Source of the DNA: a virus
Direction: 5' to 3' (one strand)
Virus record (IMG/VR): IMGVR_UViG_3300012979_000023
Coordinates: 1-24,398 of that record
DNA length: 24,398 bases
This document shows positions 447-23,594 of this stretch, piece after piece. Below the pieces are notes generated by a model. That model saw nothing but the letters and a program-made list of their open reading frames with translations. It had not been told where the DNA came from and made no database searches. Position 1 is the stretch's first letter. Every line of letters begins with the position of its first letter. A program made the position numbers and the translations under genes.

Positions 447-1466
447 TTAGAGATTAGAAATTTTTCCTTTAATATACTTTAATTCTTTTTCTATCTTCTT
501 TTGGCTATCCACGAAGGTGCGGGCAAAATCTACTTGTAAATTAGAGATTTCAACTGTATCTCGTTCGCTTTCATAAGGATAACGGACTATTTTTACGACA
601 CGCTGATATTGTTTAATACGTTTAATCTTATCAACAATCATAACCGCGTCGCCAATAGAAACAGAATTACCTAATTTGGACAGGGTTAATTTATAACTTG
701 CTCTTGGCATTGCGATTTGATTAAGATAATTTTCTGCTTTGCGTTTTAAAATATCAGCGACCTCGATATCCTCATCAATCCATACTTTTTCAATATACTT
801 ATTGCTATAAGTAAAATTCTCTAAATAGTTTTTGTCATTATTAACTACCGCTATTGTTAATCCATCCTTTCCATAAGGGTAAAGGACAGTGGCATAATCA
901 TAAGTATTAGATTGTTTCTTCAATAATTTTAAGTTAAGTTCATTAGAGTAATAAGCCCCTAAATCACTACCTAAAAAATCATATACACGCATTATCTTAT
1001 TTTTTGTATCAAACCAAATATCGTGCCCACAATAGGCTCTTACGTCTTTTATAGCGTCCAGAGCAATTATATTGGCTTCTTGTTTAGTCATCATAGTTCT
1101 ATTTTCGCTATTATACTCCAATTGCCAATCAGTATTCCACAAACAATACTCATAAATAGATTGCGGGTTCATATCCAGACAGTCAAAATATTGGAATAGA
1201 GAGCCTTGAAGACTTTCAATATTAGGGCTACAAAAAACTTGAATATATTCGTTATCTTCATTAAGTATTTCTTTAATTACATAACTATAATCCTTGGTTT
1301 CTACATAATTTTCTTCTTGTAGAATTTCTAAATTATAATCATTACAAATGGCTTTGAAACGCAGGGATTTAGTCCCCGCGTCCAAAGTCTCAATTGTATG
1401 AACATCTTTTAGATTACTATCCAGTAGGGCAAGAAAATTATGCTCGGTGTCATACACTTTTATCAT
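447..1466 (-). CDS. Tail-tip protein, Tal N-terminal-domain type (phage minor structural protein N-terminal region, gp27-like); no C-terminal extension
   Basis: 339-aa ORF directly after the Dit-type genes. It starts 'MIKVYDTEHNFLALL...LRFKA...' and ends '...YKLTLSKLGNSVSIGDAVMIVDKIKRIKQYQRVVKIVRYPYESERDTVEISN', which resemble siphophage Tal / prophage-tail N-terminal domains from memory. Confidence 0.7.
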   Translation of the reverse strand: MIKVYDTEHNFLALLDSNLKDVHTIETLDAGTKSLRFKAICNDYNLEILQEENYVETKDYSYVIKEILNEDNEYIQVFCSPNIESLQGSLFQYFDCLDMNPQSIYEYCLWNTDWQLEYNSENRTMMTKQEANIIALDAIKDVRAYCGHDIWFDTKNKIMRVYDFLGSDLGAYYSNELNLKLLKKQSNTYDYATVLYPYGKDGLTIAVVNNDKNYLENFTYSNKYIEKVWIDEDIEVADILKRKAENYLNQIAMPRASYKLTLSKLGNSVSIGDAVMIVDKIKRIKQYQRVVKIVRYPYESERDTVEISNLQVDFARTFVDSQKKIEKELKYIKGKISNL

Positions 1467-1477
1467 AATTTTCCTCC

Positions 1478-1831
1478 TTAAATATAACGAGGGTTATATT
1501 CTATTGAAATGGATGCCTGTAATCCGTTATTAATTTTTACGACATTTCTGCCGGGTTTTAGTTTGGGGAATTCCCAGGCGTCATAAAGCCCAAACGCATT
1601 CTCGTCATTGACAAGAACCGTGCGGTTTTCGCCGTCAATAACTAAATTATCTCCCATTTTAATACCCGAAACATTAATAGGTTCGTCGCTTAAACCCTCT
1701 ATTGTTAATTTGATGAAATCCACCTTGGGGATAAAAGTAATTATACAAGGGGCTGGGGCAGTCCCGTTATTTACGATAACAAAACTGCTCCCAGTTTCAT
1801 CAAACTCTATTGGAAAATAATTTTGTTCCAT
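1478..1831 (-). CDS. Distal tail protein (Dit) C-terminal galectin-like domain, encoded as a stand-alone 117-aa protein
   Basis: Has its own AGGAGG RBS. Motifs 'VIVNNGTAPAPCIITF', 'GDNLVIDGENRTVLVN', 'WEFPKLKPGRNVV' and 'EYNPRYI' parallel the C-terminal half of canonical Dit proteins (e.g. the SPP1 gp19.1 pattern N-G-x-x-P-x-I ... GD-x-L-x-ID ... L-x-P-G-x-N). Confidence 0.7.
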   Translation of the reverse strand: MEQNYFPIEFDETGSSFVIVNNGTAPAPCIITFIPKVDFIKLTIEGLSDEPINVSGIKMGDNLVIDGENRTVLVNDENAFGLYDAWEFPKLKPGRNVVKINNGLQASISIEYNPRYI

Positions 1832-1848: not shown

Positions 1849-4800
1849 TTACAGAACTTCACTCGTATTGTTAGCGAGTTGTATCCAACCGCGACCAGTA
1901 TAAGCCCAGTCAGGATTGTTAGTGCTTACATAAGGAACAGTAATACGCTCGCCGTAAAGGTAAATGCCGAGTTTATATTCTTCATTTGCTATTGGCACAG
2001 AGTAGTAATTAGTATCTCTCGCAATTGCGTAGTTCTTATTTACTTCGGTGGTGTTAAGAGAAGTATAACTCTCTGGCACCCAGAAGGAACCATCAAAGTA
2101 ATAACGTCCATTATCTGTATCATAGTAATAATATGTAGTTAAGATATTAGAAGCATTACCATAAGAGTAAGTAGTGCCCTGTGCGTCTGCCGGATTAGTA
2201 TAAACATAGAAATTCATAGAATTATCTGCGTCATTAACCAAGCAGATACTCTGTTGTAGTTTAGTAAGTTTTAACTTATCAAACTCACCAGCGTAAATAG
2301 AAGAAGTTTTACTTTCGAACCATTGGTCGCAAGAGAAATACCATTCACCAACTACTCTATTGTCTGCGTCAGCAGTATATTTAGAAATAGGAATTATTAA
2401 GCCCGGCACTAATTGACGATTTTCAGGAGCATAAAGGTCAGGATACTGATAAGTTTGAACTTCACTATTGGTTTGAACAATATAATCTGCTTCGGTAGAA
2501 ACAAAGTCCCATCCATTGAAGTAATTATAAGGTTCGTCAATACTCTTATTGCGTAGAGCCACAATGCTATCAGGCACTGCCAAGAATTCACCCGTAATTA
2601 GATTATACCAGCCATTATCGGGTATTCGTAAATCTTCACCATTAAATCTATACCAAGTGCCTTTTGGAACGGGAACCCAATAGTCTCTAATTAAAAGATT
2701 TTCATAGACGCTAACATTATAACCTAATGTAGTAGAACCGCCATTCGTAAAATCTATATATTTAATATTGGTATATCTCATTTTATAAGCAGACGTAGTA
2801 TCTGCGATATCAGTTAAACTATCGTCGAACGGTTTAAACGCATACTTACCATATAGATTTGTATTATCTTTTATGATTTCAAATTTACTTGTGTCTGGAT
2901 TCCAGAAGAAATACTCATATGGTTTTTGTGTATATACATCTTGTGTGCCAACAACCACGTTAGTAGTATTTCGGCAATTAGATATATTGGCTTTTAAGCA
3001 TAAACCGGGGGTTATTTTTTCTGGAATTATTGGTGCCTTATATTTTATCGTAGTGCCTGGAAATGGTTCCATATCATTTTTAGTATTACGACCTCGTGTG
3101 GTTCCAATATTCACACTGGGCATATAATCATCTATTCGTAATGAAGTGCCCGCTGGAAGTCTTTTATTGGTTTCACCTGGTTGTGAAGCACTATAATAAT
3201 AACTATCAAATGTAGAAACATAAGGATAATCATCATAAGGAATATTGACAATTTCTACCGCATAATCAATATCATAAATATTATCAGTTGGAGGATAATC
3301 CGGATTATTTAAGTCTAATCTCAACTGAATATTGACTGGAATTTTTGTCCTCTCATTAGCAGGACCAATCTTGGGATGTTTAATCTTGTAAGTGTTTGGA
3401 TAGAAAGGAGCATATAGAACATATTGAGAACCAGTTCTAATTAACTCTTCAAATGAGAACACAATATCGCCAGAAGCGTCCCAAGAACGAGGGTTCCACA
3501 TATAAATGCCGTCAGGATAGCCCGCAGGTCTATACAAATTCTTATCAAAACCGAAATAATCCCAGGTTAAAGCGAGTGGAGTATCACGATAAAGTTGTGG
3601 ATTAATAGGCTGATTATTTTCATCTACACGCCAAGAGGTTTCAATGAAAATATCCCAGTCGGGGTTCCAATCACTCATAGAACAAGAGAAACCGGCACGA
3701 CCTAATTCATTAGCCTCGTTCTTATTATCCTGATAATAAATACAAGTATAATTATATACTGTTTCAGGATATACGAAATCTAATTCGTGAAGTGCGGAGA
3801 ATGCCTCGTAAGTATATTCACCGGTGTATTCATAATTAGTGAAATCGTGGAAACGTAGGCGTTTAGCTTCTGGGTAAATACCTACATCAGCCAAAGAAGT
3901 GGCAGTGCTAAAATCTATATCATTCAAATCGATTGCGGTTAAGCCTAACGCATTATACAACTTACCTGCCTGGTTAAAGGAAATATCTTCTGCCTTAACC
4001 CAACTCTCAACCTCTGGGATATAGCACCATAAGCGGTCGATAGTAAGTTTATTAATATGGACTTCACTCTTAAACGGAATAGTGGCAGTTGCTTCATCAG
4101 GAACATCGTAGTCTGGGTTCTGTCCAGGACCGGTCATAGGCTCGGTCGCACTTAACATAATCCAACCTACTGGATATTCTTTTAAGCGACCCCAACCATT
4201 ACGCTCTTCAATGATAGTGTAAGTATCACGTTCAATTATCATCGCAAGAGTTTGATATTTACGAGCAGGTCCTCTATGGATACCAGCGTATTTATTCAAT
4301 ACTCTTACCTGATAAGGAATGAAATATTCGAACTTTTCATCTTCGTAGAGAGCATCGTGATAGTGGTTGTAATATTTAATCGCACCATTGGGGTTCAATA
4401 CTACGCCGTCTAAATCACAATTTAAGTAATTGGGGTTTTCTTCATCCACAGTAATTAAATCAGTTTCATAAGCACCACCGCGATAATATTCTACGTATAG
4501 AATATTGTCTGCTTCATCCGCAGTAAATTTATCATAAACTACTATTGGAGATGGAGCGTCAATGAATGCCTGGATATTATTACTTGCGATAATATTTTCA
4601 TCAAATACTAATCGTCCGTGTTTGAATTTGTCATCATAGTATAGGTCTAAATCAATACCAAGGTCGGCTAAACTATTGGCGTTTTTGATATCTTCAATAG
4701 AGTAGAAAATATCTTTGGAGCCTATACGATAATTATCTTGATAATATACAACAGTCTTGGTGAATGTTCTTAATTTATAATAAATATTCGCCAAACCTAA

Positions 4801-7800
4801 TTCGTATATTTCTTTTAAGGACATACTCTGGAAGGAAAGGTCCGTGTCTAAATCTATCATACCATCCAAATGAAATTCATCAGGTTTATAGTCATTAAAA
4901 CGTAGCATATCTTCCAGGGTTTCTTCTTGTGGATTGTAATAGGTAGGAACATCTACATATTGATTGGCGATAAACGCGTTATCCCAATCATAGTAGTTTT
5001 CAGTAATTTTGCCGTAAATTAGTGGGTCATACATTACTTGGAGTGGTAATACTTCTTCTGGTTTAATAGTGATAACTTTTTGAGCCAACGCAAGATTGCC
5101 TTGGTCATTGATACCACTAAAATCATTCATAGTATATGTGCCACCCTCATTGCTATTACCAAAGAAGATTTCGGTGATTAAGTCAAATAAGCCATTAGCA
5201 GGCATTACATAATCAAAAATCTTGTCGCCTTCGGCTACGGGGATTAAATCACGAACAAGACGGTCTCTATCATAAAGTTTTAAACCCCATACATAGCATC
5301 CACCAACCTGCGGATATTGTGGCATTGGGAAACTGGCGTAGTTAATATTTCTGGTTTTAGAAACTGTTTGATAAATGATATTACCCTGTGTGTCAGTTCC
5401 TACGCCTTCCAAAGTTTCTATAACAATAGAACCGTAATTTTCATCTTCGTAAGGATTAGTTCCTATCACGGCACTCTCTAAATTGTTAGGAGTTCCCATA
5501 CCAGAAATGGCAGGGAATAACATCGGGTTGAAAGGCATTATATTAACTTTTCCGGTATTTGGATTGGTAGCCTGGAATAAAGTGAAAGAACCGCGAGGCT
5601 GTTCTCTTCCTTCAAAGAAGTCATTATCAGTATTTTCGAACTGAACTTGATAAGGAGAATTCATAGTATTTTTATTATAAATTTCAGCATAATTATTATA
5701 CGCGTCTATAATAAAGGTAAAAGGATTACCAAATACTTTTCTTACGGCTGGATTAACTTCTTCTCCCATCTGTCCTGTGCGTCCTAAACAAGAAAGCCAA
5801 CCACCTAATTTAGTTTCACTCGGGAAAGGTATATCTATTTTTTGAGAAATACCATAAAAATTAAACGCATCAATTTCATTATAATTATCATCGTAGGTGC
5901 GGGCTACACCTCTACGATAGCCTCCCATTAAACCAATAGCAGATATAGGCACGTCAGCACCAGGATTAGTAGGACCGCCGGCACCGGTATAATAAGTAAA
6001 ACCATCGAAAGTCTGTGGTCCCAAAGCCGTATAAACCCAACTGCTTACAACAGGAATACGAGGACGCATAGAGAATGTGCCCTTTCCTTTTGCTCCATAA
6101 AATGGGTAATCTGTAATATCAAATGTTTCTCCAAGAGGTGTAGTAATAGTAGTTCCATAAGGACGTTGGCTATTAGGGATAGTATTTAATGGAGCGTGAT
6201 AACCCATAAAATTCAAATAGTCAAAACTCTGTGCTCCATAAGATTGTCTGGCAACTGCCTGGGTCAATCCTAATTCTTTTTGTGTGTAGCCTAAACCAAG
6301 AGCATATCCAGTGAATTCTACACGAAGTCTGCCGATTTCTTTTGGGCGATATCCTAAATCAATATAAGGAATGCGTCCCGCCACAGTGCTTAAATGGTTA
6401 AGAATACTATGAGAAGTTGAAGTATCAAATCCCCAATATAGCACTTTCTGTTCATAAGATGCGTTTTCAGGGTCATCAGGCTCAATTAAAGTCTCATAGA
6501 CAATCGCGATTTCTTCGGCATTAACTAAATCTTCAAATGAATACCAACGAGATGGGTCAGCGAGCATACCGCCACCGCAAATAACAGGCTTAAACTTATT
6601 AATTAATTCATTTGGTAATGTATCTACCATTTGAATTGGGTATTCATAAGTATCAATTGCGAACTCCCAAGAGGTAGAAGCAATTAGATTAGCCTCATCA
6701 ACTTCGTCAGTATAATAATTGATATCTACATATTGTGGTTCTGGGGCATACCAAATTGTGTATGTAGGTTTCAAATCTTCTGGCTTATCGAGTCGTTCGT
6801 CCATACGATACCACTCATAAGTTTCGCCATCCACATAATAGTTTTCTGGTTTTTTAGCATTGAAATCAATATAGAAGTCAATATACTCACCTTCACGGAA
6901 ATCAGACTGGTCAAAAGTCAAAGTTTCAGTGCCGACTACTTCATAAGTGCGGATGCCGAATACCTTCTTGATATAACGGATTACTGTGCTGTAAGTCTGT
7001 GGCTCTTCTTCCATAGGTTTATAGACAATCTCATAAGGAGAATATTCTAAAACACGAGAAAGAGAAACACGTTTGCCAGGATACACAAAATCTGTCTGAT
7101 AGCCTTCTGGCTTATGTTTATTTAAACGAACGATATCGCCAAAAGTAGGAACTTGATAGAAATCACGCTCGCTAATTGGGATAACTTCTTCGCTAATAAT
7201 AGTTCTTGTGCCGTCTAATTCTTCTCTAATATAATTGACGTTGATGAAATTGTTTTGCTCCTGATAAACAACATTGAAAGTCTTATTGTTAAGATTATCA
7301 AAATTAATTACAAAAGGAGTTTCTAATTCCTTAATAACGCCAGGGTTATAATAAGCCGGCTGGTATTTATCTACATTAAATTCTACATAGGGGTCCCATT
7401 CTTTTTCGCCAGTAAAATCATTACCGCGGAACCAAACCGTCATAGTCTGGAATAGGTTATCACCCTTATAGTAATTAACATAGCAATGTCCAATAGTGTG
7501 TTCCAAGTTAGTATCGGTGTATCTATCATCATCGATAATATTGAAACTATTTAATTTAGTGCCGTCTTCGAAGAAGGTCTGGCTTACTTTATCATATAAG
7601 CAATTGCTTGGGGCGACTTGATTACCAATCTTGTCATAGAACTGAACTGGAATAAAATCGCGGATTAGAACATCACCTTGATAAATACGGCAACTATAAA
7701 TACCAATACCCGCTAATCCATCAGCATAAGAACCGGAGTTATTATTGGCGAATAGATATAATGGATAAGGCATCTGGGCACTCTCGGTTTGTAATTTATT

Positions 7801-10383
7801 AGTATAAGTAAAAATTACGTTGGAGTAGCCTGCTTGTGCGGAAGAATAAATACCAGAGTTAGAGCCGAAGCCGATTGCGTTATCCTCTGTTAAGGTAAGC
7901 ATATTAGTATTCTTACCTGCCTTGGCTTCATAGGTATTGACTCCCGTTAAGTTGGTGCCATACTGCGTCTGGTTATTAAAACGCATAAAATAAGAGCCTT
8001 GATTGCTGGTGCTACCAAATAGGTAAGCATAACCGGCATTTACTTCGTGTAATGGCACATAATTATCTACACGCTTACATTCCATAATAACTGTCAATTT
8101 AGACATATCAGTAGTAGATACGCCAGTATTAATAAACGCGTGGTTTAAAGTCCATTCGGGATGTAAGTGCTCATAATCGCCTAAATCGTTATGTTGTAAG
8201 AATAAGAAGCGATGTGGATAGTCAATTCCATCAGGGTCTTCTGGTTCAACCTCTTTGATATATACAACATCAACAGAACTTAAATCCAGAAGGGCAGAGA
8301 AATTAACTGGACCATTGTATTGTAGAATGCCGTCGCCCGCATAGCCTGGCTTATAAGCATTTAAGTCTAATCCTAAATCAAATAGAGTAGTGCCTAATTC
8401 AAAATCAATTACTCGATAAGTTATATTAGAACTACCTATCCAGTTCATATCCGCTACTTCGTCGATATAATAGCGGACTGGGGTTTTATATTCAGTCGCT
8501 AAATATAGGACATCATAAGCAGAGCCTAAACTCTCAAAATCCATTAGAGCAGTAGAACTATACTTATCAATAATGCCGGGTTCATAATATTCGGGACGAT
8601 ATAGGTCTAAATTAATAATATCCTTTAAACGAATACCACCGACTACATCGGCTTCATTAATAGTAATAATACTTGTATTAATTGTGCTATAAGCACTACT
8701 TAATTCTTGTCTATATTTAACAATAATGTTCTTGGTTCTTAATTCTACAATCTCACTATACAAGATAATAATAGGAGATGCTTGTGTTAGTGCGGAAAGT
8801 GAAACTTCGCCGTCATAAGAAGCCAATTCATCAAATTGATATCCTTCCGGTCTATGTAAAGAAATAGGAATAATATCATTTAAAATTGGGTTATTTAAGA
8901 ACATTAAAGCATTAATTTCTATACGCTCTTCAACTGGGGTGCTATCAAAAGAACCAGTATAATATCTCACTACAATTGGGAAATTAATTTCCTTATAGTA
9001 GATTTGTAGTATGCCGGCATTCATAACACTATGATAAGTCTCATAAGTATCAGCATTATAAAGAGCACCCTCTTCATACTCACTGGTATGATACTTATCT
9101 AAATTAAGGTTCATATCACGGACTACATCAAAATCAGTTTCAAATGCGTCCATATATTTAGTAGTAATTGTGTTAGTTGCTACACGATACCAATTGGGGT
9201 AAGTGCCAACGTAGTATTCTACATAAAGAGTATTTTCGGTTCTATTATAACGCACCACATAAGATAGTCCAAGAGTATCATAAGTGATAGTATCATTCTC
9301 GCCAAAATCTACGACGAAACCTTCATTAAAATAGCCACCTTCTGGGCGGAATGCGTTTAAACGAATAATATCTTTCAGGGTCATACCTTCAATGATATCG
9401 CTTTCCCGCACACTCAATACAGCAGTGTCTATTAACTCATAGGTGCCGTCATCTTGTTCCTTTTCATAGCGAACTGTAATGTTTTTACTTTCCTCATTTT
9501 CTATCTTTTGGAAATATACGTTAATTGGGCTGGCTTGTAGCAATGCCTCAACTGTTAATTCGCCGTCATATCCAACAGATGCTTTGTAGCCTTCTGGTTT
9601 ATAGGTTTTTACTTCTACCAATTGGCTAATAGAATTAATATTCTTTAACTCCGGATAAGTGAAAGAAATAATGCGAGACAATAGTTCATTGTAATATCCT
9701 GTGCCGTCGTCCATATAATAAGCAACATTTAAATTGTAAGATATGGGAGCATAATTAATAATAAGGGCACTCAAAGATTGTAAGTTTTCATAGTTGAGTT
9801 CAATACCACCCAAATTAGTGGCAACACCCATATTATAATATTGAGGCAGATATTTATTTACATCCACGCCGATGCTTTCTAATGTATTACCTTCTTCTTC
9901 AAAAGAAGACGCTCGAATAGTAATACTTTCAGTTGCCAATAGAGTAGAATTATTCTGGTAATAAACTACCGTTAATTTAAAAGAATTCGTCATATTGGCG
10001 TTGGTAGTATAAATTTCTCGTGAGCCCTTGGCGTAATCACTTGTTAGAGTATAACTAACAACAAAATTACCATTTTTAAGACGATTAGGTTTAGATGCTC
10101 CTTGTAGGCTCACATCAAACAGCAAACTTAAATCATCAAATTGTAGGGTAGCCTTTTTAAGCATCTGGGTTAGACGACTTATTCTCATAAAGGCTTCTTC
10201 TTCATCGGCACACAATACTAAAAATTCTAATTCGATAGTCTTAAATCTATCTTGTTGTCTAATGGCAGTAGGTTGAATATCACCATCCAACCAATCTTCC
10301 ATAGTATCAACTTTATTACTATTTAAGACACGATTATAGAGTTGTATGCCGAGACTGCTTAAATCAATGCCGTTAATTAACAT
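1849..10383 (-). CDS. Giant 2,844-aa tail-tip adhesin. It has a Dit-like N-terminal domain (aa 1-~128), about 16 repeats of ~83 aa (MucBP/beta-grasp-like), three lectin/jelly-roll-like modules, and SH3b-like modules
   Basis: Single uninterrupted 8,535-nt ORF. The N-terminus 'MLINGIDLSSLGIQLYNRV...IELEFLVLCADEEEA...LQFDDLSLLFDV' is Dit/Sipho_tail-like. A motif '(Y/H/F)(K/R)P(E/G)(G/Y)Y' recurs at aa 262, 346, 511, 596, 678, 1007, 1090, 1177, 1832 and 2284. 'L(I/V)RD(F/L/Y)(I/W)PV' occurs at aa 905, 1708 and 2563. An SH3b-like segment lies at aa 2022-2080. Confidence 0.9.
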   Translation of the reverse strand: MLINGIDLSSLGIQLYNRVLNSNKVDTMEDWLDGDIQPTAIRQQDRFKTIELEFLVLCADEEEAFMRISRLTQMLKKATLQFDDLSLLFDVSLQGASKPNRLKNGNFVVSYTLTSDYAKGSREIYTTNANMTNSFKLTVVYYQNNSTLLATESITIRASSFEEEGNTLESIGVDVNKYLPQYYNMGVATNLGGIELNYENLQSLSALIINYAPISYNLNVAYYMDDGTGYYNELLSRIISFTYPELKNINSISQLVEVKTYKPEGYKASVGYDGELTVEALLQASPINVYFQKIENEESKNITVRYEKEQDDGTYELIDTAVLSVRESDIIEGMTLKDIIRLNAFRPEGGYFNEGFVVDFGENDTITYDTLGLSYVVRYNRTENTLYVEYYVGTYPNWYRVATNTITTKYMDAFETDFDVVRDMNLNLDKYHTSEYEEGALYNADTYETYHSVMNAGILQIYYKEINFPIVVRYYTGSFDSTPVEERIEINALMFLNNPILNDIIPISLHRPEGYQFDELASYDGEVSLSALTQASPIIILYSEIVELRTKNIIVKYRQELSSAYSTINTSIITINEADVVGGIRLKDIINLDLYRPEYYEPGIIDKYSSTALMDFESLGSAYDVLYLATEYKTPVRYYIDEVADMNWIGSSNITYRVIDFELGTTLFDLGLDLNAYKPGYAGDGILQYNGPVNFSALLDLSSVDVVYIKEVEPEDPDGIDYPHRFLFLQHNDLGDYEHLHPEWTLNHAFINTGVSTTDMSKLTVIMECKRVDNYVPLHEVNAGYAYLFGSTSNQGSYFMRFNNQTQYGTNLTGVNTYEAKAGKNTNMLTLTEDNAIGFGSNSGIYSSAQAGYSNVIFTYTNKLQTESAQMPYPLYLFANNNSGSYADGLAGIGIYSCRIYQGDVLIRDFIPVQFYDKIGNQVAPSNCLYDKVSQTFFEDGTKLNSFNIIDDDRYTDTNLEHTIGHCYVNYYKGDNLFQTMTVWFRGNDFTGEKEWDPYVEFNVDKYQPAYYNPGVIKELETPFVINFDNLNNKTFNVVYQEQNNFINVNYIREELDGTRTIISEEVIPISERDFYQVPTFGDIVRLNKHKPEGYQTDFVYPGKRVSLSRVLEYSPYEIVYKPMEEEPQTYSTVIRYIKKVFGIRTYEVVGTETLTFDQSDFREGEYIDFYIDFNAKKPENYYVDGETYEWYRMDERLDKPEDLKPTYTIWYAPEPQYVDINYYTDEVDEANLIASTSWEFAIDTYEYPIQMVDTLPNELINKFKPVICGGGMLADPSRWYSFEDLVNAEEIAIVYETLIEPDDPENASYEQKVLYWGFDTSTSHSILNHLSTVAGRIPYIDLGYRPKEIGRLRVEFTGYALGLGYTQKELGLTQAVARQSYGAQSFDYLNFMGYHAPLNTIPNSQRPYGTTITTPLGETFDITDYPFYGAKGKGTFSMRPRIPVVSSWVYTALGPQTFDGFTYYTGAGGPTNPGADVPISAIGLMGGYRRGVARTYDDNYNEIDAFNFYGISQKIDIPFPSETKLGGWLSCLGRTGQMGEEVNPAVRKVFGNPFTFIIDAYNNYAEIYNKNTMNSPYQVQFENTDNDFFEGREQPRGSFTLFQATNPNTGKVNIMPFNPMLFPAISGMGTPNNLESAVIGTNPYEDENYGSIVIETLEGVGTDTQGNIIYQTVSKTRNINYASFPMPQYPQVGGCYVWGLKLYDRDRLVRDLIPVAEGDKIFDYVMPANGLFDLITEIFFGNSNEGGTYTMNDFSGINDQGNLALAQKVITIKPEEVLPLQVMYDPLIYGKITENYYDWDNAFIANQYVDVPTYYNPQEETLEDMLRFNDYKPDEFHLDGMIDLDTDLSFQSMSLKEIYELGLANIYYKLRTFTKTVVYYQDNYRIGSKDIFYSIEDIKNANSLADLGIDLDLYYDDKFKHGRLVFDENIIASNNIQAFIDAPSPIVVYDKFTADEADNILYVEYYRGGAYETDLITVDEENPNYLNCDLDGVVLNPNGAIKYYNHYHDALYEDEKFEYFIPYQVRVLNKYAGIHRGPARKYQTLAMIIERDTYTIIEERNGWGRLKEYPVGWIMLSATEPMTGPGQNPDYDVPDEATATIPFKSEVHINKLTIDRLWCYIPEVESWVKAEDISFNQAGKLYNALGLTAIDLNDIDFSTATSLADVGIYPEAKRLRFHDFTNYEYTGEYTYEAFSALHELDFVYPETVYNYTCIYYQDNKNEANELGRAGFSCSMSDWNPDWDIFIETSWRVDENNQPINPQLYRDTPLALTWDYFGFDKNLYRPAGYPDGIYMWNPRSWDASGDIVFSFEELIRTGSQYVLYAPFYPNTYKIKHPKIGPANERTKIPVNIQLRLDLNNPDYPPTDNIYDIDYAVEIVNIPYDDYPYVSTFDSYYYSASQPGETNKRLPAGTSLRIDDYMPSVNIGTTRGRNTKNDMEPFPGTTIKYKAPIIPEKITPGLCLKANISNCRNTTNVVVGTQDVYTQKPYEYFFWNPDTSKFEIIKDNTNLYGKYAFKPFDDSLTDIADTTSAYKMRYTNIKYIDFTNGGSTTLGYNVSVYENLLIRDYWVPVPKGTWYRFNGEDLRIPDNGWYNLITGEFLAVPDSIVALRNKSIDEPYNYFNGWDFVSTEADYIVQTNSEVQTYQYPDLYAPENRQLVPGLIIPISKYTADADNRVVGEWYFSCDQWFESKTSSIYAGEFDKLKLTKLQQSICLVNDADNSMNFYVYTNPADAQGTTYSYGNASNILTTYYYYDTDNGRYYFDGSFWVPESYTSLNTTEVNKNYAIARDTNYYSVPIANEEYKLGIYLYGERITVPYVSTNNPDWAYTGRGWIQLANNTSEVL

Positions 10384-10386
10384 TAA

Positions 10387-10572
10387 TTAAATTCCTCCTT
10401 GTCTTTGGACTTCTAATCCAATGTTATTTAACATAGAGGCATTTTGTTCCTCTTGGCTGGGGGCAGACTGTTGAGTTTCTCTTATTACTGTGTCTATATT
10501 TCCACTACTGGAAGTATTTGTAAAGGTTTGTTCAGTCTGCTGTTGAATTAATGACATTACATTTTTTTCCAT
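10387..10572 (-). CDS. Hypothetical Q/S/T-rich 61-aa protein in the tape-measure position
   Basis: ORF with ATG 2 nt after the stop of the upstream gene, ending 1 nt before the giant ORF start. Low-complexity sequence with no recognisable family; coding status rests on tight packing only. Confidence 0.45.
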   Translation of the reverse strand: MEKNVMSLIQQQTEQTFTNTSSSGNIDTVIRETQQSAPSQEEQNASMLNNIGLEVQRQGGI

Positions 10573-10574
10573 AA

Positions 10575-11090
10575 CTATACCTCATTAATCCCTAATTTGT
10601 TAAAAATTTCTTGTCTCTCTTTTAAGGAACCGCCACTGTATCCTTTATCCTCTTTAAGATAAATAGGGTCTTTAATATTTTTCAAGGCTTGACCTACTGC
10701 TAATTTAGTTAAATTTGCTTCCATCTCTTTACGAGTTAAATACCCTTCATATGCGTCTTCAATTTCTTTTGGCGTCATCTTAAAAAAATCAGCGGGGGCT
10801 ATTCCCATTTCGCCTACGGCTTTGGTATATAACCCCCCTATATCAAAAAAGGATGTGAGGGATTGAGGAATGGCTGACATAATACCGGGCATTAAATTAC
10901 CCTCATCAACTGCCGTTTTGACAAGAGCAATTTCTTCATTTGTAATGTCAGGGTGCTGGCTGATTAACCCACAATACAAAATGAATTCGGTATTTTGTTC
11001 CTCACATAGATTTAAATTTTGAGCCAATAGACTTAAACCTTTCAGCCCAAATTTGACCTCAAAATATTTTTGAGGAGTTCTAATAATCAT
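10575..11090 (-). CDS. Tail assembly chaperone-like protein (171 aa); possibly a chaperone fused to a minimal tape-measure-like helical tail
   Basis: Lies immediately downstream of the major tail protein gene (ATGA overlap). The N-terminal 'YFEVKFGLKGLSLLAQNL...ILYCGL' resembles gpG-type chaperones; the C-terminal half is predicted helical by composition. Family not verified. Confidence 0.5.
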   Translation of the reverse strand: MIIRTPQKYFEVKFGLKGLSLLAQNLNLCEEQNTEFILYCGLISQHPDITNEEIALVKTAVDEGNLMPGIMSAIPQSLTSFFDIGGLYTKAVGEMGIAPADFFKMTPKEIEDAYEGYLTRKEMEANLTKLAVGQALKNIKDPIYLKEDKGYSGGSLKERQEIFNKLGINEV

Positions 11091-11476
11091 TTCCGTTCTA
11101 ACGGACCTGTGCCTAAAATGGAAATATTATATTTGAATTGTTTATCAAATACCGCAGTTAAAGGGAAATTTGTAATTAAACCTGTCCCCTTAAAATGAAT
11201 ATCATTTATAATAATTTCCACTTCAATTCCAGCGTTAGACATAAAAGCCTCTTCCAAAAGAGAGAGAGAATTAGAATTGGCTAAATAAATACCATTACAC
11301 TGGATATTCCACATTTTTAGACCGTCCATATTTTCAGCCCATTCCGCTTTGATTTTATTAGTAATTTCAATTGGGGTCATAGACTGATTGAGGGTCGCTC
11401 CTGTTTGTCCGCCTACCGGCTCTTTATTTACATAAAGAATTACATCAATTCCCTTTTGGGCTGGATTAAATGTCAT
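11087..11476 (-). CDS. Major tail protein, TP901-1/Phage_tail_2 type (129 aa from the internal ATG)
   Basis: The track ORF extends to 11566, but AGGAGGAAGAAGATA-ATG at 11476 gives 'MTFNPAQKGIDVILYVNKEPVGGQTGATLNQSMTPIEITNK...WNIQCNGIYL...FKGTGLITNFPLTAVFDKQFKYNISILGTGPL', the typical pattern of this family. The upstream extension overlaps the preceding gene and looks non-coding. Confidence 0.8.
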   Translation of the reverse strand: MTFNPAQKGIDVILYVNKEPVGGQTGATLNQSMTPIEITNKIKAEWAENMDGLKMWNIQCNGIYLANSNSLSLLEEAFMSNAGIEVEIIINDIHFKGTGLITNFPLTAVFDKQFKYNISILGTGPLERK

Positions 11477-11867
11477 TATCTTCTTCCTCCTTTGCGGAAT
11501 AAGTAAGAAGAAAAGTATATCTAATAACACCGTGCTTGCGGATTGGACCAGTCCCATTGTCATCAATAATACGAGCAGATTGTTGATTCGCCGAAATGAT
11601 ATATGGATTAGTCTCTCTTAAATATACTATATTGCGGTTTATGTTTTCAATAATTTCTAATATTTCTTTTTCGCCTGAATAAGTAGAATATACATCCAAC
11701 ATAAAACTAACAGTTTCGGTGGTGGTATCAAATGATTGGCTAATTTGATGCCCGTCTGTGCGGAGCATCAACCAAGGAAATAATTCTTTATATTCTCCAC
11801 TGTCTGTAATATGATAGCCGAGTTTTTGAATTAATTCGTAAAATTGGCGTTTAAGTTCTAAAACCAT
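11466..11867 (-). CDS. Putative tail completion / tail terminator protein (133 aa)
   Basis: Lies directly upstream of the major tail protein gene. Size and position match SPP1 gp17-like / gpU-like proteins; sequence similarity was not confirmed by eye. Confidence 0.5.
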   Translation of the reverse strand: MVLELKRQFYELIQKLGYHITDSGEYKELFPWLMLRTDGHQISQSFDTTTETVSFMLDVYSTYSGEKEILEIIENINRNIVYLRETNPYIISANQQSARIIDDNGTGPIRKHGVIRYTFLLTYSAKEEEDNDI

Positions 11868-12616: not shown

Positions 12617-12835
12617 TTACACCTCGCTATGTAAATCCTCCACGTGCTGGGCTAACATAGCCTCTTTCTTTTCTAACTCATAGACACGCTCAATAACATT
12701 ATTATGAAGATTTACTTTTTTTTCTAATTGTTCAAGGCGATAATTAGTTAATCGAGCAGACGCAATAACACCTAAAATAGAGCCCAAAGCAGTGCCCAAA
12801 AAACCAATTATCGCGATAATTATTGTCTCACTCAT
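12617..12835 (-). CDS. Small membrane-anchored coiled-coil protein (72 aa; one N-terminal TM helix)
   Basis: 'TIIIAIIGFLGTALGSILGVIA' is a hydrophobic helix. It is followed by a heptad-like charged region 'RLEQLEKKVNLHNNVIERVYELEKKEAMLAQHVEDL'. Confidence 0.65.
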   Translation of the reverse strand: MSETIIIAIIGFLGTALGSILGVIASARLTNYRLEQLEKKVNLHNNVIERVYELEKKEAMLAQHVEDLHSEV

Positions 12836-12846
12836 TTCTATTTACC

Positions 12847-13314
12847 TCATTTATTATAAAAAATATTAATTGATGTGGCTTTATATACATTTAATGAAAA
12901 ATTTAACGTTAAAGTCATATCTTCATAAGTAGCAGAGGTAAAATATTTACCAGAAGAGTAAGAATTACTTGTATTTTGATATACTACATTAATTCCGGTT
13001 CCATCATAATAAAGAACCAGAGGGTATCGAACCGCACTTATGTTCAAACCGGAACTATCGTTCGCACATACCATTAAAGCCATAAAAGGCGTATCAGCAG
13101 AAGGTAAATAATCTTCTAAATACCAACTAATAGTAGCACTGCCTACATCACCACGAGTAAGTTGTAGATATTCTAATTCGCCTCCGCCAGTAGTCAAATT
13201 AGAAATTGCCGTAGCCATATTTAATGGAGCAATAAGCCCAGTCTCTCCGGTTTTAGAACGAATAGCATCACCAATAGAAGTTAGAGTGCTTTCTTCAATA
13301 AATACTTTACTCAT
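12847..13314 (-). CDS. Fibre-associated protein 2 (155 aa), sharing the N-terminal 'IGDAIR-KTG' motif with the 381-aa LRR protein
   Basis: 'LTSIGDAIRSKTGETGLIAPLNMATAISNLTTGGG' aligns with 'LSAIGDAIREKTGKEDLLTLDQMPEEIKGISGGG' of the 13823-14968 product. The start codon overlaps the stop of the collagen-like gene (TAATG). Confidence 0.7.
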   Translation of the reverse strand: MSKVFIEESTLTSIGDAIRSKTGETGLIAPLNMATAISNLTTGGGELEYLQLTRGDVGSATISWYLEDYLPSADTPFMALMVCANDSSGLNISAVRYPLVLYYDGTGINVVYQNTSNSYSSGKYFTSATYEDMTLTLNFSLNVYKATSINIFYNK

Positions 13315-13808
13315 TAATAAGCACCCTCCTCTGCGACGCCAATAGCGGATAGAGAAGCATCAATCATAGCCTGAATTTCAGTTGCGGTTTTAAATTGTGA
13401 AACATCAGGAATTTGGATTTCTGCTTTTACCTCATTAACTAAATCTTGCTTTTCGGATTCCGTCCAATAATCTACGCCCTTGACGGGGGCTGGTCCGGTT
13501 AATCCCTGGGGTCCCTCTGGACCCGTTGGTCCTTGAATTCCTTCCGGTCCTCTTTCCCCTTGGGGACCCTGTGGTCCCATTTCGCCCTGCGGTCCTTGTG
13601 GTCCTATCGGTCCCGCAGGTCCAGTTAAACCGATAGGTCCTTGTTCCCCCGGCATACCTTGAAGACCCTGTATTCCTTGGTCTCCTTTGGGACCTTGCGG
13701 TCCTATTGAACCCTGTGGTCCCGCAGGACCTTCTGGACCCTGGGCACCCATAATGGTCATAATTTCCTGCCATTCATTGGAGGCATTCTTAAATTTTAAA
13801 ACACTCAT
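13314..13808 (-). CDS. Collagen-like repeat protein 2 (164 aa; 29 uninterrupted G-X-Y triplets)
   Basis: G-X-Y run '[25 protein letters not shown]...GPQGLTGPA', followed by '[18 protein letters not shown]...[10 protein letters not shown]'. The DNA shows GGN-CCN periodicity at 13490-13745. Confidence 0.9.
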
Positions 13809-13822
13809 TTAGGCATCCTCCT

Positions 13823-15688
<1,866 letters not shown>

Positions 15689-22955: not shown

Positions 22956-23594
22956 TTACTTAATGTCGGCATAACTTTCCGCCACAAAATATAATGTCTT
23001 TGTCGGCACTGGAATTTCTTTGCCGTCCTCGGTATAATGAATAGCATAATATTCATCATAAGAAATTATTCCTTCCTCCTGGAATAATTTAAGTGTTTCA
23101 GTAATCATAGCACTAATTGCTTTATTGTCTCGTGAATATCCAAGACGTTCGGCAATTTCATAATTGCGGAATACATATAGTTCGTGATTTTGTTTTTTCC
23201 ACATAAACCAGTCCAATAGGATGGTATAAATTCTTAACATTTGCTTTTGGCGGAATGTCGTTAATTTTAATATCATATCTCTGTCAATTAATTTATACTT
23301 ATCTTCTGGATTTTGCGGAAAAACGTAATTATTACCTTCTTCTGCGATTAAGCCTTTTTCAATTAATTTATCCATATGCCGTTTTAATTGGGCTCGTCCG
23401 CTGAAATCACAAGTAGCGTAAATTGTAGGACGCAGTTGTGCGTAGTTCCTTTTAGATAGATATAATTTATCCCCATCATAAGTCGCATAATAATACAATA
23501 AACCGTATAATAAATCATTAGTTTCATAATTCATAAAATTCGCCTCCAATGATATACGACGCTGATAGGGTTTAATAGTAGTTAATTGTGCCAT
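22956..23594 (-). CDS. Putative replication initiator / replisome-organizer-like protein with two winged-helix-like segments (212 aa)
   Basis: 'RAQLKRHMDKLIEKGLIAEEGNNYVF' and 'YEIAERLGYSRDNKAISAMITETLKLFQEEGIISY' look like two wHTH units. It is the first gene after the strongest promoter and is adjacent to the iterons. Family unverified. Confidence 0.5.
   Translation of the reverse strand: MAQLTTIKPYQRRISLEANFMNYETNDLLYGLLYYYATYDGDKLYLSKRNYAQLRPTIYATCDFSGRAQLKRHMDKLIEKGLIAEEGNNYVFPQNPEDKYKLIDRDMILKLTTFRQKQMLRIYTILLDWFMWKKQNHELYVFRNYEIAERLGYSRDNKAISAMITETLKLFQEEGIISYDEYYAIHYTEDGKEIPVPTKTLYFVAESYADIK

Follow-up and report, generated by a model that had tools for sequence, protein, structure and literature searches.

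A giant split-Dit protein with a beta-grasp array in 24 kb of phage DNA: a probable length-constrained stalk

The giant gene and the division of Dit

The window, 24,398 nucleotides (24 kb) of phage DNA, contains a giant ORF (1849-10383, minus strand) encoding a 2,844-aa protein (Table 1). It lies among tail genes in the order tube (PF06199), a 171-aa ORF, a 61-aa ORF, the giant gene, a gene for the C-terminal domain of Dit (Dit-C), and Tal (PF06605), an order that is kept in relatives. With the tail-tube genes on one side and Tal on the other, the giant gene occupies the position of an evolved Dit. No relative was found among 185,579 species genomes; the host of the phage would be of the Gram-positive type.

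Residues 3-128 of the giant protein correspond to the Dit N-domain (43% identity, E 2e-34, to residues 4-139 of the 236-aa canonical Dit P0143), and the 117-aa product of the adjoining gene corresponds to residues 133-236 of the same protein (40% identity, E 1e-26). This second gene, with an AGGAGG ribosome-binding site of its own, is in a frame different from that of the giant ORF; stand-alone Dit-C copies of 104-122 aa are the rule in the family. A profile search revealed about 100 proteins that share only the Dit N-domain with the giant protein, many of them of 226-243 aa and also carrying the Dit C-domain (PF22768). These similarities show that the Dit is split, the N-domain being fused to a giant arm and the C-domain being encoded by the adjoining downstream gene, followed by Tal.

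An evolved Dit is a ring protein with carbohydrate-binding modules (CBMs) that add host-binding capacity at the tail tip; in the known examples one or two CBMs are located in loops of the galectin-like C-domain (PMC7291167). The giant protein matches the evolved Dits of Lactobacillus phage J-1 and of lactococcal and streptococcal phages in its N-domain and gene position. It differs in having ~2,700 aa after the N-domain, in having the C-domain on a separate gene rather than additions inserted in its loops, and in the nature of the added modules, which are of beta-grasp and concanavalin-A-like type, whereas known evolved Dits often carry BppA-type CBMs. The giant protein is probably an extreme, split variant of the evolved Dit.

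Table 1. Features of the giant protein and its neighbouring genes, with nucleotide coordinates in the window
Feature	Residues	Coordinates	Strand	Description	Evidence
Dit N-terminal domain	1-135	9979..10383	minus	ring domain of giant protein	similarity to canonical Dit P0143
u1	136-217	9733..9978	minus	type A	best hhalign pairing u8 and u4
u2	218-300	9484..9732	minus	type B	hhalign 99% with u5, 98% with u9
u3	301-384	9232..9483	minus	type C	hhalign 100% with u6 (score 118), 95% with u10
u4	385-468	8980..9231	minus	type A, divergent, motif YHTSEY	97% with u1
u5	469-551	8731..8979	minus	type B	phmmer, profile, hhalign
u6	552-633	8485..8730	minus	type C	phmmer, profile, hhalign
u7	634-715	8239..8484	minus	type D, before non-repeat module	hhalign 99% with u11, 96% with u13 and u15
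X1	716-965	7489..8238	minus	concanavalin-A-like / LamG-type jelly roll, probable lectin module	AF2 and Foldseek
u8-u11	966-1300	6484..7488	minus	types A, B, C, D	profile search, hhalign
X2	1301-1789	5017..6483	minus	larger, variable; C-terminal strands homologous to X1	phmmer, hhalign
u12 and u13	1790-1874 and 1875-1955	4519..5016	minus	u12, moderate support; u13, type D	u12 89% with u9; u13 96% with u7
SH3b-like segment	2004-2080	4144..4374	minus	weakly supported	phrog_1794 'amidase' positions 253-324, E 1e-3
u15 and u16	2141-2213 and 2214-2330	3394..3963	minus	u15, type D; u16, weak, insert-bearing	u15 95-96% with u1 and u7; u16 only 68% with u7 (hhalign)
C-terminal region	2331-2844	1852..3393	minus	first part hypervariable; X-like segment at ~2535-2603	identity profile, hhalign
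Dit C-terminal domain		1478..1831	minus	galectin-like; separate 117-aa gene	PF22768 SPP1_Dit E 2.5e-12, positions 1-97 of 97
Tal		447..1466	minus	N-terminal structural part only, 339 aa	PF06605 Prophage_tail E 6e-28, PF18994 9e-8

Repeat units: number, types and fold

Seven tandem units of 82-84 aa fill residues 136-715, which correspond exactly to nucleotides 8239-9978. An earlier note, made from the DNA letters, had described seven tandem ~83-aa units here, and both the units and their motifs are present: single-unit phmmer searches find other units (best pairs, those starting at 301 and 552, E 4e-14, and at 218 and 469, E 5e-8), and a profile built from the note's seven units only and searched against the giant protein places their starts at residues 136/137, 217/218, 301, 385, 470, 552, and 634. 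The same profile matched segments on which it had not been trained, at residues 968-1044 (20.9 bits), 1047-1126 (49.9 bits), 1145-1189 (13.5 bits), 1820-1861 (12.5 bits), and 1877-1950 (24.3 bits), well beyond the best score of 4.3 in 300 residue shuffles of residues 716-2844; at 1221-1298 it scored only 4.5 bits. Profile-profile comparison supports four units at 966-1300, two at 1790-1955, and one at 2141-2213, followed by a second, weak unit that bears an insert; no unit is supported at 1956-2006 (probability ≤21%). The total is 14 well-supported units and one weak one, that is, seven beyond the array plus the weak one. The expectation of about nine downstream units (about 16 in all) was correct for the four at 966-1300 and too high in total, with two rather than three at 1790-2020 and one, then a weak one, from residue 2141.

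Pairwise identity between units is 12-36% at the protein level, not even the closest pair has significant similarity in DNA, and Tandem Repeats Finder detected no ~250-bp array. The divergence of the copies in DNA that the note had reported is therefore real, and its view of the array as old, with no recent amplification, is supported.

Unit types were assigned by hhalign probabilities between units, giving four types in the order ABC-ABC-D-X1-ABC-D-X2-u12-D...D, with a D-type unit before each non-repeat module. The consensus drawn from 120 homologues (1,432 unit instances) is I-t-V-n-Y-Y...D-F...L-x-D...N-k-Y-k-P-e-y-Y-x-x-G...V-x-Y, and conservation shared by all units falls on core-type residues: the first-strand tyrosine (100% of instances), the last-strand tyrosine (99%), and a proline (81%) and glycine of the turn. 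The array runs without gaps in the 120 homologues, with copy number and length fixed, and every unit resembles its orthologue (identity 0.40-0.72) more than its paralogues (0.12-0.36); together these features fit a defined architecture rather than a copy-number-variable adhesin. The most variable unit among homologues is u3 (0.40 identity).

An AlphaFold2 (AF2) model of three units (pLDDT 90.5, pTM 0.71) has linkers of 3-5 residues from the final strand of each unit to the opening strand of its successor, and helical segments between strands 2 and 3 of each unit. Foldseek searches of the PDB with this model returned, nearly throughout the top matches, tandem beta-grasp proteins, including ISG15, the UBL domains of USP7, the immunoglobulin-binding protein of R. 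gnavus (7kpj, E 3e-5), YwfG (7yl5, E 1.1e-2), and the Mub repeats Mub-RV (4mt5, E 2.8e-3) and Mub-R5 (3i57, E 2.4e-2). The model shows the ~83-residue units as ubiquitin-like beta-grasp domains, as the earlier note had guessed.

The proposed MucBP-type membership fared differently. The whole giant protein had no Pfam match at E≤1, none of the 13 units searched matched the MucBP (PF06458), Flg_new, Big, or cadherin models at E≤10, precomputed MucBP or Flg_new matches were present in 0 of the 120 homologues, and a PDB sequence search with the units gave no match. The suggested context of a Gram-positive surface adhesin is likewise not supported, given the phage Dit N-domain, the tail-gene neighbourhood, and the absence of an LPXTG motif from the giant protein. 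The Mub type-2 repeats of Limosilactobacillus reuteri (Pfam MucBP) are recovered by fold, but each is a two-domain unit (B1+B2, ~184 aa) where the phage unit is a single domain, and Mub proteins are secreted, LPXTG-anchored, and bacterial and do not share the fixed copy number of the phage array. Judged by sequence, the units are a beta-grasp family without a Pfam entry. An Ig-like decoration domain (Big_2 type, as in Hoc-type mucus adherence) was also rejected; there is no Pfam match, and the fold is beta-grasp and not Ig-like.

Flg_new and Flg_new_2 (PF09479 and PF18998) were considered as families for the units. Shorter Dit relatives (468-1054 aa) contain one beta-grasp unit, an X-like motif, and then Flg_new_2 beta-grasp repeats, which follow the same Dit N-domain in the relatives of 679-1054 aa; mid-size relatives have exactly one u1-like unit, at the u1 position. 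The Flg_new_2 (InlB B-repeat) arrays thus follow the same plan, and do so within one and the same protein lineage. Their repeats are, however, ~68 aa long as against ~83, and comparison of the 13 units with eight Flg_new_2 repeats from Dit relatives gave an hhalign probability of 0.3%. The B-repeat has an extended loop and no helix between strands 2 and 3 (PMC8900821), where the phage units have helical segments. On these grounds and the lack of Pfam matches, membership in either family was rejected.

The best PDB match, the R. gnavus protein, consists of tandem beta-grasp-like domains in complex with Fab (probability 0.99) and, together with the Mub repeats, raises the question of whether the array binds animal mucin glycans or immunoglobulin, holding the phage in mucus or on antibody-coated bacteria as a tail-tip 'bacteriophage adherence to mucus' device; among predicted viral structures the closest were large, uncharacterised proteins from uncultured phages, which could be read in the same way. 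We consider such a role very unlikely. The fold matches are generic to beta-grasp domains, with ISG15, USP7, and ubiquitin scoring equally; no Mub or Ibp protein resembles the units in sequence; and the tail-tip position and the lectin-like and SH3b-like modules point to a bacterial surface. At 9% identity and a TM-score of 0.21 over the three-unit query, 7kpj has only the domain fold in common with the units, which are arranged differently.

Non-repeat modules

The AF2 model of X1 is all-beta (pLDDT 90, pTM 0.89), and its Foldseek matches are neurexin LNS2 (E 2e-3, probability 1.0), lectin domains of sialidases including the R. gnavus CBM40, botulinum toxin binding domains, and galectins, with modest E-values (2e-3 to 0.1). 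X1 is predicted to have a lectin-like (concanavalin-A-like) fold, and a lectin role is probable; identity among homologues is 68-93%. Homology between X1 and X2 is apparent from phmmer (residues 890-951 against 1693-1754, E 1e-9) and hhalign (97%), and X2 pairs with the C-terminal region at 87% (hhalign); the C-terminal strands of X1 recur in both, so that X2 and the C-terminal segment may also be concanavalin-A-like lectin modules.

The N-terminal half of X2 is variable (0.34 identity among homologues). The peak of variability is located not in the array but in the C-terminal region, where identity to homologues is 0.16 for residues 2331-2500 and 0.35 for residues 2501-2660. The most conserved segment (0.82 identity) is the putative SH3b-like one; a Pfam search of this segment in the giant protein itself gave no match, and a precomputed match to PF08239 (SH3_3) is found in 6 of the 120 homologues.

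A putative stalk at the tail tip

The array is best explained as a stalk of constrained length by which an extreme, split evolved Dit projects lectin-like and cell-wall-binding modules, a combined reading to which we assign a probability of roughly 0.6. The seven back-to-back beta-grasp domains follow the ring-forming N-domain directly. In solved siphophage baseplates the Dit ring is a hexamer; if the same is true here, the tail tip would bear six radiating giant chains, on the assumption that a Dit with its C-domain on a separate chain assembles like the canonical one. The units, with short linkers and in fixed number and order, would mainly form a semi-rigid stalk of defined length, the stiffness being judged from linker length and pTM. 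This stalk would space three concanavalin-A-like modules (one modelled, two proposed from homology), the SH3b-like segment, and the hypervariable C-terminal region and extend them towards the wall of a host cell of Gram-positive type; which modules bind what we can only infer. No further receptor-binding protein gene was found downstream of Tal, so the 2,844-aa chain is probably the main adhesion device of the phage.

A stalk or spacer was among the functions suggested in the earlier note, and it is the one best supported by the fixed architecture, the core-type conservation, and the precedent of SraP and YwfG. The binding region of SraP (S. aureus), YwfG (L. lactis), and the phage protein combine concanavalin-A-like lectin and beta-grasp modules in an extended rod (a predicted one for the phage protein), in which, for the two bacterial proteins, the beta-grasp part is the stem and the lectin the sugar binder. 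The beta-grasp module of SraP, which showed no immunoglobulin binding, belongs to a rigid stem carrying an L-type lectin outwards (PMC4047093); sugar binding by YwfG was confined to its lectin domain and was not seen with the Mub repeat that was assayed. These bacterial proteins have one tip lectin and one to few beta-grasp domains, whereas the phage protein, a probable virion component, has 14-15 units interleaved with three predicted lectin-like modules.

The units might themselves be adhesive, each weakly binding a glycopolymer of the host cell wall, with avidity producing the first, reversible adsorption and the lectin-like modules and C-terminal region adding specificity. Such a role is possible but doubtful. 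It is suggested by the fold, which is also that of the Mub repeats, reported binders of mucin glycans and immunoglobulins; by the richness of the array in tyrosine; by marked variation among homologues (in u8, 0.48, and u11, 0.54, as well as u3), as expected of units tracking the host surface; by the functional CBMs of evolved Dits (PMC7291167); and by a weak Pfam match of one unit to CBM46 (E 1.7e-3). However, the positions conserved in all units belong to the core and turn and form no obvious shared site, the invariant number of copies and the separate conservation of each unit type favour architecture over generic multivalency, the beta-grasp parts of the solved lectin-plus-beta-grasp adhesins showed no sugar or immunoglobulin binding, and variability is strongest in other parts of the giant protein.

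At the other extreme, the array could be purely architectural within the tail-tip complex, folded back along the tube, forming a collar, or helping to set tail length in a phage without a normal tape measure protein, with no outward projection. No tape-measure-sized gene separates the tube gene from the giant gene, only the 171-aa and 61-aa ORFs without family matches, and relatives of the phage have the same layout; the strictly conserved length of the array would also fit. Tape measure proteins, however, are helical and lie inside the tube, where beta-grasp beads on the outer Dit ring cannot sit, and further along the chain come lectin-like, SH3b-like, and hypervariable modules, for which only an exposed position makes sense. 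The shorter relatives with one unit likewise have no long tape measure in the gene table, so its absence is independent of the array. We regard this explanation as very improbable.

With regard to functions beyond those of a stalk, the tyrosine content of the units (9.8%) and the moderate variability of u3 and u8 could reflect ligand-binding surfaces, and Mub repeats of the same fold bind mucins and immunoglobulins.

Genome layout and the split distal tail protein

At about 24.4 kb, the window approximates a complete phage genome, and every gene lies on the minus strand. A head block (small and large terminase, portal, Mu-F-like head protein, scaffold, major capsid, and connectors) is followed by two collagen-repeat proteins and then by genes for tail completion, tail terminator, and tail tube; beyond the tube lie ORFs of 171 aa and 61 aa, the giant ORF, an ORF of 117 aa, and a 339-aa ORF resembling the tail-associated protein (Tal). 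The 171-aa and 61-aa ORFs have no family match, and no tape-measure-sized gene is found between the tail tube and the distal tail protein (Dit) genes, a layout that the relatives share. Because only these two small ORFs occupy the interval, the tape measure of this phage is either very short or missing altogether. The genome contains no separate receptor-binding gene, and no endolysin, integrase, or replication genes were recognized across the window apart from a helix-turn-helix protein.

The giant protein begins with a Dit N-domain. A profile of its residues 1-384, searched against 1.84 billion representative proteins, found 168; those that are not members of the giant family match, almost without exception, residues 1 to ~135 alone, and many are proteins of 226-243 aa with the Pfam SPP1_Dit C-terminal domain at ~140-235. 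In P0143, a protein from this search, residues 4-139 align with giant-protein residues 3-128 (43% identity, E 2e-34) and residues 133-236 align with the downstream 117-aa ORF (40% identity, E 1e-26), which constitutes a full PF22768 domain, is preceded by an AGGAGG ribosome-binding site of its own, and is read in a different frame. Because the two halves of P0143 align in this way, the Dit is, as judged from sequence, cut at the junction of its two domains, with the peripheral domain encoded separately and the ring domain in the giant gene, where it carries a 2,700-aa extension. The same layout occurs in relatives, and the homologue list is full of stand-alone C-domain proteins of 104-122 aa. 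A single Dit broken by sequencing error or pseudogenization was rejected, given that the split with its stand-alone C-domain gene recurs in >120 clusters; the idea that the phage carries a bacterial surface adhesin as cargo was rejected on the basis of the Dit N-domain, the lack of an LPXTG motif, and the synteny conserved in relatives, whose contigs are consistently 24-28 kb.

Positions of the features discussed, with identities of giant-protein segments in comparisons against 120 homologues
Feature	Position (nt)	Strand	Length or residues	Identity
Helix-turn-helix protein	22956-23594		212 aa	
Collagen-repeat protein (Pfam Collagen, E 7.5e-10)	14955-15359	(-)		
Collagen-repeat protein (Pfam Collagen, E 5.5e-15)	13314-13808	(-)		
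Small hydrophobic/coiled protein	12617-12835	(-)	72 aa	
Tail tube ORF (listed TTG start)	11087-11566	(-)		
Two small ORFs	within 10387-11090	(-)	171 aa, 61 aa	
Giant ORF	1849-10383	(-)	2,844 aa	
Dit N-domain	9979-10383	(-)	aa 1-135	0.72
Repeat units				0.40-0.72
Seven-unit array (u1-u7)	8239-9978		aa 136-715	
X1, non-repeat module	7489-8238	(-)	aa 716-965	0.76
X2, non-repeat module	5017-6483	(-)	aa 1301-1789	0.34 (first half)
SH3b-like segment	4144-4374	(-)	aa 2004-2080	0.82
Hypervariable stretch	2884-3393	(-)	aa 2331-2500	0.16
C-terminal segment	about 2575-2779	(-)		
Dit C-domain ORF	1478-1831	(-)	117 aa	

The repeat array and its fold

The stretch in which the earlier note had seen seven tandem repeats of ~83 aa corresponds exactly to residues 136-715 of the giant ORF, and the repeat is real: with single units as phmmer queries, each of the seven matches other units (the strongest pairs being those starting at residues 301 and 552, E 4e-14, and at 218 and 469, E 5e-8), and copies on which the profile was not trained score above shuffled sequence. 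A seven-unit profile recovers its own units (starts 136/137, 217/218, 301, 385, 470, 552, and 634) and finds further copies at residues 968-1044 (20.9 bits), 1047-1126 (49.9), 1145-1189 (13.5), 1820-1861 (12.5), and 1877-1950 (24.3); the top score among 300 shuffles of residues 716-2844 was 4.3. Among the additional downstream units claimed from the first reading, one segment counted there (1956-2006) is unsupported; segment 2214-2330 is weakly supported, and the total comes to 14 solid units and one weak one.

Self-BLASTP of the giant protein returns the identity match only. Paralogous units are 12-36% identical to one another, no DNA similarity between them is significant, and Tandem Repeats Finder gives no signal, so the array is old, as had been proposed, and a recent amplification at the DNA level is ruled out. 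In a consensus of 1,432 unit instances, a tyrosine is present in the first strand (100%) and in the last (99%), together with the proline of the K-P-E-G-Y turn (81%) and the glycine that follows it (73%). Orthologue alignments made for each unit and compared profile against profile resolve four types, A (u1, u4, u8), B (u2, u5, u9), C (u3, u6, u10), and D (u7, u11, u13, u15), in the chain order ABC-ABC-D-X1-ABC-D-X2-u12-D ... D-u16; every non-repeat module is preceded by a D unit.

An AlphaFold2 model of residues 136-384, built with 50 homologues (mean pLDDT 90.5, pTM 0.71), gives each unit a beta-hairpin followed by short helical segments and then by a strand, a helix, and a last strand, with 3-5 residues between successive units. 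Foldseek matches of this model in the PDB are nearly all tandem ubiquitin-like beta-grasp proteins, including the immunoglobulin-binding protein of R. gnavus (E 3e-5), Mub-RV (2.8e-3), YwfG (1.1e-2), Mub-R5 (2.4e-2), ISG15, the ubiquitin-like domains of USP7, and staphylococcal superantigen-like proteins. The predicted viral structures that match best are uncharacterized large proteins of uncultured phages and giant-virus ubiquitin. The suggestion that the units are MucBP- or beta-grasp-like therefore holds for the fold (AlphaFold2, Foldseek) but not for membership of MucBP, because Pfam searches with the whole giant protein and with each unit gave no match except one weak CBM46. Searches of the giant protein against NCBIfam and PHROG yielded nothing but a weak amidase/SH3-type PHROG match, none of the 120 homologues has a relevant precomputed family match, and PDB sequences gave no match to the unit profile and a single chance-level one (E 0.77) to the full-length profile. 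By sequence the units belong to neither MucBP nor Flg_new; homology to Flg_new_2 repeats was rejected, as profile-level comparison finds no detectable similarity. The units are a beta-grasp repeat family absent from the filed families. From the representative search, P0246 (cadherin/Big_9) was discarded as a weak, unrelated match, and P0225 and P0257 were not accepted as independent occurrences, both being fragments of the same giant family.

Lectin-like modules and a proposed tail-tip arm

Phages infecting Gram-positive bacteria build highly diverse adhesion devices from the Dit-Tal core. Here, three non-repeat modules alternate with the repeat blocks of the giant protein. X1 is modeled as an all-beta domain (pLDDT 90, pTM 0.89) with a predicted concanavalin-A-like lectin fold; its fold matches, of high probability and modest E-value, are concanavalin-A-like (neurexin LNS2, sialidase lectin domains including the R. 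gnavus CBM40, botulinum toxin binding domains, and galectins). X2 and the C-terminal segment share the last strands of X1. Conservation of X1 lies above that of the repeats, and within the giant protein it peaks in a segment with a weak PHROG match and, in a few homologues, a Pfam SH3_3 match, which may, on weak support, be an SH3b-like domain of the cell-wall-binding type. The array is ungapped in all 120 homologues compared; the hypervariable stretch has many gaps and is the likeliest candidate for the determinant of host specificity.

In siphophage baseplates the Dit N-domain assembles at the tail tip as a hexameric ring (PMC7291167), so that here six arms would leave the ring. The short linkers, the fixed copy number, and the individual conservation of each unit position argue for an array that would be a defined, fairly stiff stalk, not an expandable adhesin; its task would be to set apart and display the lectin-like modules along with the SH3b-like segment and the hypervariable end. 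We consider this role as mainly a stalk for those parts probable (roughly 0.6). At ~3-4 nm per unit, the seven-unit block would, as a rough estimate, be ~20-28 nm long. In SraP, a beta-grasp module without detectable immunoglobulin binding is part of a rigid stem projecting an L-type lectin (PMC4047093), and in YwfG sugar is bound by the lectin domain only; these solved bacterial adhesins are a direct precedent for a stalk. A less likely possibility is that the units themselves are multivalent binders of host glycans.

The fold matches to Mub and the R. gnavus immunoglobulin-binding protein raise by analogy an improbable further reading, that the Dit-anchored arms bind the mucus or immunoglobulin of an animal host; the phage would first dock on mucus or on bacteria coated with antibody, and the lectin-like and hypervariable modules would contact the bacterial wall afterwards. 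If true, this kind of adherence would be seen for the first time on a distal tail protein and for the first time through a beta-grasp instead of an Ig-like fold. Least likely of all is a purely internal architectural function of the units.

As a presenting stalk, the giant protein would work like lectin-plus-beta-grasp adhesins. Evolved Dits known so far have one or two added sugar-binding modules (PMC7291167); a Dit bearing a stalk and lectin-like heads would work alike, but the CBMs of an evolved Dit sit in galectin-domain loops of one chain, an arrangement not found here. In this genome the Dit would have become an arm of 2,844 residues, in which 14-15 beta-grasp beads are combined with three lectin-like modules. 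A Dit that carries a stalk and lectin heads follows a familiar design logic. Unusual are the splitting of the Dit and the scale, with the giant gene alone taking up 35% of a 24-kb genome, and our literature search found no paper connecting a phage distal tail protein with an array of beta-grasp units. The family, with hundreds of metagenomic members, offers a clear case of putatively duplicated stalk-plus-head modules and a tractable system for relating arm length and multivalent lectins to the control of adsorption.

Relatives, host, and neighboring genes

The giant protein has at least 237 homologues; the 120 listed are 2,735-2,989 aa long, all metagenomic, and annotated "hypothetical protein". 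Their contigs are about 10-28 kb, the longest (24-28 kb) being of complete-genome size. Dit relatives of smaller size (468-1054 aa) carry a single such unit immediately behind the Dit N-domain, then an X-like motif and Pfam Flg_new_2 (InlB B-repeat) domains, a plan from which the giant protein seems to have grown by duplication of stalk-plus-head blocks. For L002, the locus of a relative of P0151, only the gene table was used, and with caution; its DNA does not translate to that table.

With the giant protein as query, tblastn found no match in 50,697 phage GenBank records, and a scan of residues 1-384 against 185,579 species genomes found no relative and so gave no hint of a prophage or host. 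Portals of Clostridium sporogenes phages share 44% identity with the one in this genome, whose other matches are mostly to Firmicutes phages; together with the SH3b-like segment, this suggests a Gram-positive-type host. MT835666.1 (24.4 kb, human fecal; Tal 30% identity) was set aside as an ordinary siphophage with a 1121-aa tape measure and a 231-aa Dit.

Between the head-completion and tail genes, the two collagen triple-helix proteins flank a 383-aa protein without a family match, and the three may be head or neck fibers. The 72-aa protein, with a single hydrophobic N-terminal segment, a coiled C-terminal part, and no Pfam match, looks by eye like a holin or XhlA. The listed TTG start of the tail tube ORF overlaps the terminator gene by ~100 nt and is probably too far upstream; tube proteins as called in relatives are 127-131 aa long, which suggests that the true start is the internal ATG at MTFNPAQ.
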